Source: a candidate division Kazan bacterium GW2011_GWA1_50_15
GTDB taxonomy: Bacteria; Patescibacteriota; Kazan-3B-28
Length of the DNA: 64,000 nt
Assembly: GCA_001029795.1 (NCBI GenBank)
Contig: CP011216.1
Coordinates: 6,903 to 70,902 of the forward strand
Reading direction: 5' to 3'
Shown here: positions 40,793-42,675 of the stretch, in pieces
How positions within the stretch are numbered: the first letter of the stretch is position 1
Layout of the letters: each line of letters begins with the position of its first letter
Translations under genes and position numbers: made by a program
The notes under the pieces: model-generated
The model's input: the letters and a program-made list of their open reading frames with translations, nothing else
The model's database searches: none
What the model was told of the DNA's origin: nothing

Positions 40793-42675
40793 TTTTTGAG
40801 AGTTTGATCCTGGCTCAGGATTAACGCTGGCGGCATGCCTAACACATGCAAGTCGAATGCCGCCAATTTAGAGCTGGTTAGTAGCATTTCTATGCAATGT
40901 AAGTTGAGTGGATGTTTATCTGGTGGCTTTGCGCTAACGAACTTTAAATTGGCGGCATGGCGGACGGCTGAGTAACGCGTGGGAACTTACCTCTAAGTTG
41001 GGTATAACCTGCCGAAAGGCGGGATAATCCCCAATGTCCCGCCAATTTAGTGTTGGTGTTCAAGTAGATGCTAATTGAATGGTGTGATGCTGTTCGATTG
41101 GGCGGACTATCATATACGAACATTAAATTGGCGGGAAAGATTTATCGCTTAGAGAGAGGCCTGCGTTCGATTAGCTTGTTGGTGGGGTAATGGCCTACCA
41201 AGGCTCTGATCGATAGGGGGCTTTAGAGGGTGACCCCCCAGACTGGGACTGAGACACGGCCCAGACTCCTACGGGAGGCAGCAGTGAGGGATTTTCCGCA
41301 ATGGACGAAAGTCTGACGGAGCAATGCCGCGTGAAGGAAGAAGGTCTTCGGATTGTAAACTTCTTTTGCCCTTGAAGATTATGACGGTAAAGGGCGAATA
41401 AGGCGCTGCTAACTACGTGCCAGCAGCAGCGGTAATACGTAGGCGCCGAGCGTTATCCGGATTTACTGGGCGTAAAGCGTCCGCAGGTGGGTTTACAAGT
41501 CTGACATCAAAGCCCTTGGCTCAACCAAGGAAAGGTGCCAGAAACTGTTTATCTAGAGATTGGAAGAGGCTGATGGAACTTCTGGAGTAGGGGTAATATC
41601 CGTAGATACCAGAAGGAACACCAAAGGCGAAGGCAGTCAGCTGGTCCAATTCTGACACTCATGGACGAAAGCGTGGGGAGCGAACGGGATTAGATACCCC
41701 GGTAGTCCACGCCCTAAACGATGGGTACTAGGCATTGGTGGCATCGACCCCCTCAGTGCCGAAGCTAACGCGTTAAGTACCCCGCCTGGGGAGTACGGTC
41801 GCAAGACTAAAACTCAAAGGAATTGACGGGGACCCGCACAAGCGGTGGAGCATGTGGTTTAATTCGATGGTAAGCGGAGCACCTCACCAAGGCTTGACAT
41901 CCTGTTGAAAGCGACTGGAAACAGACGCCCCCTTTTAGGCAACAGTGACAGGTGCTGCACGGTTGTCGTCAGCTCGTGTCGTGAGATGTACGGTTAAGTC
42001 CGATAACGAGCGCAACCCCTATGTTGTGTTGTATTTTTCACAACAGACCGCTGTGGTTAACACAGAGGAAGGTGGGGATGACGTCAAATCAGCGTGGCCT
42101 TTATGCCTTGGGCGACACACGTGCTACAATGGACAGGTCACAATGGGTTGCGAGGCCGTAAGGCGGAGCTAATCCCACCAAAACTGTCCCAAGTTCGGAT
42201 TGGGGTCTGCAACTCGACCCCATGAAGCTGGAATCGCTAGTAACCGCAGATCAGCCATGCTGCGGTGAATACGTTCTCGGGTCTTGTACACACCGCCCGT
42301 CACACCAAGAAAGTGAGAAACATCCGAAATCTCTCGGTTACGAGGGCCTAAGGTGGAGCTCATGATTTGGGTGAAGTTTAACGGCTTCCCATGCGAGTAA
42401 TCGCATGGTAAAATCTAACTATATCGGTGAACTCCGATCCGCCAGTCGGCGGAGGACAACGCCGAGGGAAGTTGGGCTAGCCACGAAGTTCGTGGCGAAT
42501 TCTTGTTAAATTCTGCTAGACAGCAGAACATATAAGTTGCCTTAACCCCGTAGAGACTATACGTTGGCGCCATCGAAAGATGGATGAAGACATAGTCCGG
42601 CACTCTTGGCAACAAGAGATAACAGTTGCGTAACAAGGTATCCGTATCGGAAGGTGCGGATGGAACACCTCCTTT
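40793..42675 (+). rRNA. rrs: 16S rRNA gene, about 1.88 kb, with V1 and V2 expansion segments and a 3'-proximal group I intron
   Basis: agagtttgatcctggctcag at 40800. Universal blocks gtgccagcagcagcggtaatac and aaactcaaaggaattgacgg. 3' end ggatggaacacctcctt. About 340 nt longer than a typical 16S. Confidence 0.9.
42378..42638 (+). ncRNA. Group I intron (ORF-less, about 261 nt) inserted between ...ggtgaagt and cgtaacaaggta of 16S
   Basis: 5' exon ends in U, intron ends in G (omega-G). R-like cgtagagactatacg and S-like gaagacatagtccgg core elements resemble the Tetrahymena R/S sequences. Confidence 0.6.

Follow-up and report, generated by a model that had tools for sequence, protein, structure and literature searches.

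Brown et al. are said to have reported, in 2015, group I introns within 16S rRNA genes from candidate phyla radiation (CPR) bacteria. Here we analysed an insert in the 16S gene of a 64-kb stretch of contig CP011216.1 (the whole stretch is called the window, and all positions are given on it). We consider it very probable that this insert is a compact group I intron without an open reading frame (ORF), lying in the single 16S gene of a Kazan/CPR-type bacterium and splicing by the standard pathway. The closest described systems are found in the survey of 380 CPR 16S genes by Tsurumaki et al. (2024; PMC11270868). In that survey, 48% of CPR 16S genes carry inserts, 134 of 378 inserts are group I introns by Rfam (49 ORF-less), and LAGLIDADG_2 and LAGLIDADG_3 genes occur at 16IS10, the most 3′ of the frequent sites. 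Tsurumaki et al. also describe sites at which some inserts bear an ORF and others are shorter and lack one, and they describe degenerate ORFs, which is the pattern we report below for our site. Archaeal (DPANN-type) introns at position 1498 of the small-subunit (SSU) rRNA belong to subgroup IB4, and many contain LAGLIDADG genes; the same study found the generic Rfam group I model, RF00028, to be insensitive and subtype models to be needed (Nawrocki et al. 2018; PMC6125680). In giant sulfur bacteria, 16S introns had already been shown to splice themselves (Salman 2012, as cited); these hosts are Gammaproteobacteria, and their introns were typed as IA3, ID and IC1 according to the passage that cites them (PMC4853749).

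The insert of the window comprises 251 nt (42378–42628) that are missing from the Rfam SSU model. Its host gene is a bacterial 16S that starts at 40792, matches the full SSU_rRNA_bacteria model with 1404 bits and is otherwise intact. The insertion point lies between GGGTGAAGT and CGTAACAAGG, after E. coli U1495 (hence site S1495), and both the sequence and the SSU alignment confirmed that it breaks the conserved 16S junction of GGGTGAAGT with CGTAACAAGGTA, as the original prediction from this DNA had claimed. That prediction also had the upstream exon end in U and the insert in G, which is correct: the last 5′ exon nucleotide is U42377, the last intron nucleotide is G42628, and the 16S resumes with CGTAACAAGGTATCCGTATCGGAAGGTGCGGATGGAACACCTCCTTTCT. 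It had drawn the insert as 42378–42638, about 261 nt; the start was right, and the end has to be moved to 42628, because 10 nt of the 3′ exon had been included. Our E. coli numbering is based on the 1492R primer (AAGTCGTAACAAGGTAACC), which we take to cover positions 1492–1510, and this puts the insertion between U1495 and C1496. The intron thus sits two nucleotides beyond the decoding bases A1492 and A1493, in the strand joining helix 44 (the decoding site) to helix 45.

The first SSU match stops at 42424, within the intron, because the 3′ end of the model was forced onto intron sequence in which P1 and P2 mimic helix 45. This match end is an annotation artefact; the true 3′ exon runs from 42629 to about 42676, and a second SSU match places model positions 1388–1520 on 42591–42662, with CGUAACAAGG beginning at 42629. 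Over 1345 nt the host 16S shares 93.6% identity with the 16S of candidate division Kazan bacterium RIFCSPHIGHO2_01_FULL_44_14, a Kazan-3B-28 metagenome-assembled genome (MAG; locus L024). This identity supports a Kazan/CPR-type host, in line with the ‘CPR-like’ 16S of the original prediction, and L024 has an ORF-bearing version of the intron at the identical 16S site.

We scanned one genome per GTDB species with the pattern ATAGTC-N(15–45)-GCGTAACAAGGTA and obtained 35 loci, 18 of which are 16S genes with a homologous insert exactly between GGGTGAAGT and CGTAACAAGG. Seven of these inserts are short (241–311 nt) and eleven are long (669–816 nt). The hosts, as labelled, are Patescibacteria, Saccharibacteria, Kazan, Margulisiibacteriota, WOR-1, Elusimicrobia and ‘Deltaproteobacteria’. 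Metagenomes were scanned with the exon-independent core CCCCGTAGAGACTAYACG-N(15–45)-GAAGAYATAGTCC, which gave at least 120 matches. At least 12 of these introns lie at S1495; among the matches listed, all 12 end in G immediately before CGTAAC, although the pattern does not require that G. As a separate observation, the S1495 intron occurs outside the CPR by MAG label in L007, L016, L018, L021, L023, L030, L033 and L034 (Margulisiibacteriota, WOR-1, Elusimicrobia and Deltaproteobacteria), in genes whose exons share about 70–79% identity with the window 16S; either cross-phylum transfer or mis-binned rRNA contigs could explain this.

The full secondary structure was derived by hand (intron position 1 is 42378; Table 1), and the intron region folds far better than shuffled sequence (z = −5.4). 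P1 consists of 6 bp, formed by exon GAAGU and U1 with intron G6–C11. It contains the splice-site wobble U42377·G42384, that is, U(−1)·G7, which is kept in 19 of 19 sequences (the window and its 18 genome relatives), and the remaining exon pairs of P1 are invariant. P7 is made of intron positions 176 and 178–183 with 215–221, leaving A177 bulged, and six of its seven pairs are invariant in all 19. The pairs flanking the bulge, G42553–C42598 and G42555–C42597 (G178–C220), never vary. G42555–C42597, next to the bulged A, is the predicted guanosine-binding site, which we take to be the equivalent of C262/A263/G264–C311 in Tetrahymena. Two motifs had been quoted in the original prediction as resembling group I R and S elements (P4/P7), namely cgtagagactatacg (42549–42563) and gaagacatagtccgg (42586–42600). 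Both are present, and the R and S elements pair together as P7; the 3′ part of R is a P3 strand, and P4 is built from other segments, so the assignment to P4 had to be dropped.

Nineteen intron cores were aligned, with the distal P6 or the ORF replaced by a GAAA linker. Standard pairs filled 97.9% of the cells of the hand structure, compared with 33–44% when partners were slid by 1–3 columns, and 22 of 60 pairs showed compensatory changes on both sides. None of 500 shuffles matched the observed paired percentage, the count of compensatory pairs or the covariation score. Compensatory changes are abundant in P2, P8 and P9; P3 has two such pairs and P6 has four, and the P7 core is invariant. RNAalifold, which was blind to our structure, recovered P1, P2, P4, P5, part of P6, P7, P8 and P9. 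As an independent test, we built a covariance model (R1) from 17 relatives with the window sequence left out. R1 matched the window at 42368–42638 with 218.8 bits (E = 5e-70), an alignment that spans the model from end to end and has zero non-canonical pairs, and this was the only significant match in the 64 kb. The same model gave 225 and 218 bits on ORF-less metagenomic S1495 copies and 25–142 bits on introns at other sites. We concluded that the insert is a group I intron of complete architecture, and its exact site together with the high score on a model built without it makes it a member of the S1495 subfamily.

In place of P3, RNAalifold drew a helix of UAACU (42416–42420) with AGUUG (42469–42473), pairing the 5′ strand of P3 with the 5′ strand of P6 (alignment columns 74–78 and 141–145). 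Almost all of the 19 sequences retain this pairing, which includes one compensatory pair. We rejected it as the native fold because it is incompatible with the well-supported P6 and because RNAalifold is unable to show P3 and P7 at once; the helix may compete with the native fold or belong to a folding intermediate.

There are two other explanations of the insert. One is that it is a bacterial intervening sequence (IVS), excised by RNase III without ligation and leaving a fragmented 16S. Bacterial rRNA is known to contain IVSs, the survey suggests them as an explanation of short CPR inserts (PMC11270868), and the window 16S does carry two hairpin inserts of IVS style in helices 6 and 10. We nevertheless judge an IVS highly improbable, since the ends of the insert form no long terminal stem (the minimum free energy (MFE) and centroid folds contain multiple internal hairpins) and there is instead a covarying group I core with its U·G, a P7 of the predicted G-binding type and a terminal G. 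The site, moreover, is not a helix tip; it is a single-stranded linker by the decoding centre, and because this segment is essential, removal with ligation is expected. The other explanation is that the 16S copy is non-functional and the insert a dead relic, or that an intron-bearing fragment was joined to this genome in a chimeric assembly, given that rRNA regions in metagenomes are generally prone to mis-assembly. We give it hardly any credence: the 16S fits the full bacterial model at the score given above, both exons are continuous with one gene, the closest 16S has an intron at the identical site, and no pair is disrupted in the intron core.

Of the other metagenome matches listed, at least 37 are introns at 16S site S1498; the rest occupy four 23S sites or the anticodon loops of tRNAs. 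The S1498 introns form a sister family whose insertion point, 3 nt further downstream, follows U1498 (between ...GAAGTCGT and AACAAGG; for example L070, L074, L079 and L096), and are commoner than S1495 introns among the matches listed (37 versus 12). The S1498 guide, GCGAC, complements its own exon, GUCGU, and the U·G is retained. Because this guide is retargeted to its own exon, the guide sequence tracks the insertion site, as would be expected of working group I introns. Many metagenome loci hold several group I introns each (188 model matches in 100 loci, among the matches listed). We also observed a group II intron domain (RF01998) upstream of the S1495 intron in the 16S genes of L002 (268–355), L017 (2887–2974) and L022 (685–768), and Rfam detected no group II element in the window 16S. 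These matches in relatives fit the LAGLIDADG-bearing group II introns reported at about position 1400 of CPR 16S (PMC11270868).

The original prediction held that the intron lacks a homing endonuclease, and we agree. The window intron has no credible ORF: three overlapping mechanical ORFs (34 aa on the plus strand, 73 and 115 aa on the minus strand) lack a Pfam match, and we rejected them as genes because they are Pfam-negative and overlap rRNA. In contrast, 11 of the 18 genome relatives encode an ORF of about 160–220 aa (mostly about 192) inside P6, and the two relatives’ ORFs that were tested contain LAGLIDADG_2 (E = 4e-29 and 1e-31). In the window, two hairpins occupy the place of the ORF in P6, a layout shared with the Kazan MAG L017 and other Patescibacteria copies. 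Two strings in this region, CTTGTTAAA and TATAAGTTGCCTTAA, recur unchanged where the L024 ORF ends (its 3′ end reads ...KKLVKPY...AYKLP-stop) and are suggestive of ORF traces. Clearer remnants are found in the short copies L034 and L023, which retain 50–60 nt of the ORF 3′ end, and because they do, ORF-less forms appear to arise by internal deletion. The window intron therefore most likely descends from a mobile intron with a LAGLIDADG_2 endonuclease gene in P6, a gene since lost by deletion. The homing endonuclease that marks a mobile group I intron is absent from this copy; having lost the gene, the intron would persist vertically and could no longer home unaided.

In the standard pathway, splicing of this intron would be a two-step transesterification. 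The guide GGCUUC (42383–42388) would pair with exon GAAGU as P1, placing U42377·G42384 at the cleavage site, and an external guanosine held by the G42555–C42597 pair of P7 would attack after U42377. The short P10 (ACG with exon CGU) would align the 3′ exon, and G42628 would take over the P7 pocket from the external G. The 3′-OH of U42377 would then attack after G42628, ligating the exons, freeing the intron and restoring ...GGGUGAAGUCGUAACAAGG... (the junction of GGGUGAAGU with CGUAACAAGG) and with it the linker of helices 44 and 45.

Several observations weigh against this reading. RF00028 gave no match to the intron at the Rfam gathering score (30.3 bits against 50). P10 is short, with 3 bp, and P9.0 has only 2 bp and is weakly conserved (81.6% paired over the 19 sequences). 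P6 and P3 were refined partly on the same sequences, so the pairing counts favour our structure. The remnant evidence in the window is small, amounting to 9 nt and 15 nt, and the latter doubles as the P6 3′ strand. Lastly, LAGLIDADG proteins serve as maturases in some introns; with the gene lost and such a role possible, autonomous splicing is not guaranteed.

The first of these points carries little weight. A search with RF00028 had been proposed with the original prediction as a check whose failure would speak against it; it gave nothing at the gathering score and a local match at E = 5e-6, so that the failure is a narrow one. Under an E-value threshold, RF00028 matches 42351–42619, with that value in a 421-nt region and with 7.8e-4 in the whole window. 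At S1495, all 18 genome relatives fall short of the gathering score, which 23S introns in L018, L031 and L033 do reach. Because all 18 obvious homologues at the site fail too, the sub-threshold score is not negative evidence; it is a matter of how insensitive a generic model is, and so no argument against a group I intron. The gathering score itself is a curated cut-off of that model, not a defining biological feature.

The insert could also be a genuine group I intron that no longer splices alone and depends on a protein for folding and splicing in vivo; this protein might be a host factor, or another intron of the genome might provide a LAGLIDADG-type maturase in trans. The missing endonuclease ORF of 11 relatives, the shortness of P10 and P9.0 and the known maturase activity of some LAGLIDADG proteins would all agree with such a dependence. 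The catalytic core, in contrast, is fully conserved, and the GNRA loops that typically stabilise autonomous folding are kept (L2 GUAA, L9 GCAA, and GAAA in L8). ORF-less copies also survive in several lineages with compensatory changes, and the vicinity of the 16S showed no LAGLIDADG gene, although no search for one was made elsewhere in the window. We therefore regard a protein-dependent intron as unlikely, while giving it more room than either an IVS or a relic. Catalysis and freedom from protein cofactors are what we infer from the modelled structure of a standard group I intron, whose structural prerequisites are all present and conserved; the choice between autonomous and protein-assisted splicing is the main residual doubt.

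A further role can be imagined for the intron, namely that the ORF-less form is retained as a checkpoint coupling 30S maturation to the supply of guanosine nucleotides. P1 would sequester G1491–U1495, including A1492 and A1493, until the guanosine cofactor triggers splicing, and such a checkpoint could suit organisms with few ribosome-biogenesis factors. Intact ORF-less copies do recur, in Patescibacteria, Saccharibacteria, Kazan, Margulisiibacteriota and ‘Deltaproteobacteria’ MAGs, and the CPR copies carry conserved hairpins in place of the ORF. Both observations are compatible with selection beyond mere persistence and do not demonstrate it, and we hold the checkpoint to be a very speculative and improbable idea.

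Table 1. Positions of the 16S exons, the intron and its structural elements in the window, with intron numbering where assigned.
Feature	Window position	Intron position	Strand	Basis or remark
16S rRNA 5′ exon	40792–42377		+	Rfam SSU_rRNA_bacteria, 1404 bits; sequence
Exon strand of P1, GAAGU (final 5 nt of 5′ exon)	42373–42377		+	E. coli G1491–U1495
Group I intron, 251 nt, without ORF, site S1495	42378–42628		+	RF00028 30.3 bits; model R1 218.8 bits; covariation
P10, 3 bp: ACG with 3′ exon CGU	42381–42383 / 42629–42631		+	Able to pair; kept in 19/19
Internal guide sequence GGCUUC	42383–42388		+	MFE fold; pairs with exon GAAGU and intron U1 as P1
P2 hairpin, 8 bp, GUAA (GNRA) loop at 42397–42400	42389–42408	12–19 / 24–31	+	100% paired; 6/8 pairs compensatory
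P3, CUAAC with GUUGG	42415–42419 / 42563–42567	38–42 / 186–190	+	94.7% paired; 2 compensatory pairs
P4	42424–42429 / 42460–42465	47–52 / 83–88	+	100% paired
J4/5 (AAC) and J5/4 (CAA)	within 42424–42465		+	P4–P5 junctions
P5	42433–42435 / 42454–42456	56–58 / 77–79	+	100% paired; one compensatory pair
P5a hairpin	42438–42453	61–66 / 71–76	+	Between the P5 strands
P6 domain	42466–42549		+	Basal helix and distal hairpins P6a, P6b
Basal P6, 10 bp, AA bulge	42466–42477 / 42539–42549	89–100 / 162–172	+	98.4% paired; 4 compensatory pairs
Distal hairpins P6a and P6b	42480–42496 and 42511–42528		+	Occupy the endonuclease-ORF position of relatives
Probable ORF remnants CTTGTTAAA (42502–42510) and TATAAGTTGCCTTAA (42531–42545, reads ..YKLP-stop)	42502–42545		+	Identical in L024
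P7 5′ strand (R element): G42553, bulged A42554, G42555, then ACUAU	42553–42560		+	Pairs with 42592–42598
P8 hairpin, 5 bp, GAAA loop	42570–42583	193–197 / 202–206	+	3/5 pairs compensatory
J8/7 and P7 3′ strand (S element GAAGACAUAGUCC)	42586–42598		+	Near-invariant in family; Rfam core-consensus alignment
P9 hairpin, 6 bp, GCAA (GNRA) loop	42603–42618	226–231 / 236–241	+	100% paired; 5/6 pairs compensatory
Terminal guanosine (omega G)	42628	251	+	Sequence; G in all 12 S1495 introns among the metagenome matches listed
16S rRNA 3′ exon (CGUAACAAGG..., helix 45, anti-Shine-Dalgarno CACCUCCUUUC)	42629–42676 (end approximate)		+	Second SSU match; sequence

The two hairpin inserts of the window 16S, each about 100 nt, lie at the tips of helix 6 (40857–40958) and helix 10 (41037–41136). 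Their stems consist of near-identical 19-nt arms (CCGCCAATTTAGNGNTGGT ... ACGAACNTTAAATTGGCGG) around differing interiors. The same stem recurs at 26559–26620, between two convergent ORFs, in a third hairpin that is shorter, and the arm pattern has 6 matches where 0.1 are expected. Together these have the look of a small family of palindromic repeats with members in variable helices of the 16S as well; the 16S of L024 has no helix-10 copy and a different insert in helix 6. Neither 23S nor 5S rRNA was found at 42677–64000, the remaining 21 kb past the 16S, where the only RNA genes are tRNAs at 43886–43958 (minus strand) and 44243–44316 (plus strand). On this ground the rRNA genes of the window genome appear to be unlinked. 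The non-CPR relatives L018, L021, L031 and L033 have 16S–tRNA–23S operons.

The practical meaning of the intron lies in detection. Because the intron lies where the 1492R primer binds, the window 16S would escape PCR surveys or appear in them at the wrong size. The false SSU-model end and the sub-threshold RF00028 score together lead automated annotation to cut the rRNA short and to overlook the intron, and surveys that apply the Rfam threshold would systematically miss the S1495 subfamily. The family alignment and structure assembled here serve as a specific detector for the site. The value of the result is mostly of this kind, because CPR 16S and 23S genes are already known as common hosts of group I introns, whether or not these carry LAGLIDADG genes.

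Compared with the CPR introns of Tsurumaki et al., the window intron has the same host group, host gene and 3′-terminal region beyond position 1400 (PMC11270868). It further resembles 16IS10 in that ORF-bearing and ORF-less versions share one site and are highly similar outside the ORF (PMC11270868); 16IS10 is presumably S1495 or the neighbouring S1498. That survey called introns by Rfam at a lax E-value (PMC11270868); here, all 19 S1495 copies fall below the gathering score. The likeness to RNase III-processed IVSs goes no further than an extra segment of an rRNA gene that needs to be removed: IVSs are simple long hairpins at helix tips, excised without ligation, whereas the window insert has a ribozyme core and interrupts an essential single-stranded linker.

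Bacterial tRNA group I introns (for example in tRNA-fMet and tRNA-Ile) belong to subgroup IC3. The window intron shares with them its small size, a P2 and a P9 with a GNRA loop, and its core motif also occurs in tRNA(CAU)-like anticodon-loop introns (12 of 120 among the metagenome matches listed). It differs from the tRNA introns in host gene, and these have no endonuclease-derived P6 extension. One Thiomargarita site of Salman et al. 2012 is reportedly also 1495; our literature search on group I introns at S1495 or 1495, which did not extend to that paper, returned nothing relevant. By description, the introns of giant sulfur bacteria are alike in being group I introns of a bacterial 16S, there with experimental self-splicing (Salman 2012, as cited). 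The SSU/1498 introns lie in the same linker, 3 nt away, frequently contain LAGLIDADG genes and are likewise poorly detected by RF00028 (PMC6125680). The metagenome S1498 introns, among the matches listed, share the 31-nt P7/P3/J8-7 core and the P2 loop of the window intron and reach at most 142 bits on the S1495 model. In contrast, insertion site, guide (GCGAC versus GGCUUC) and hosts, archaeal or other, set the SSU/1498 introns apart. The window intron is thus a further member of the documented and widespread class of group I introns in CPR 16S genes.

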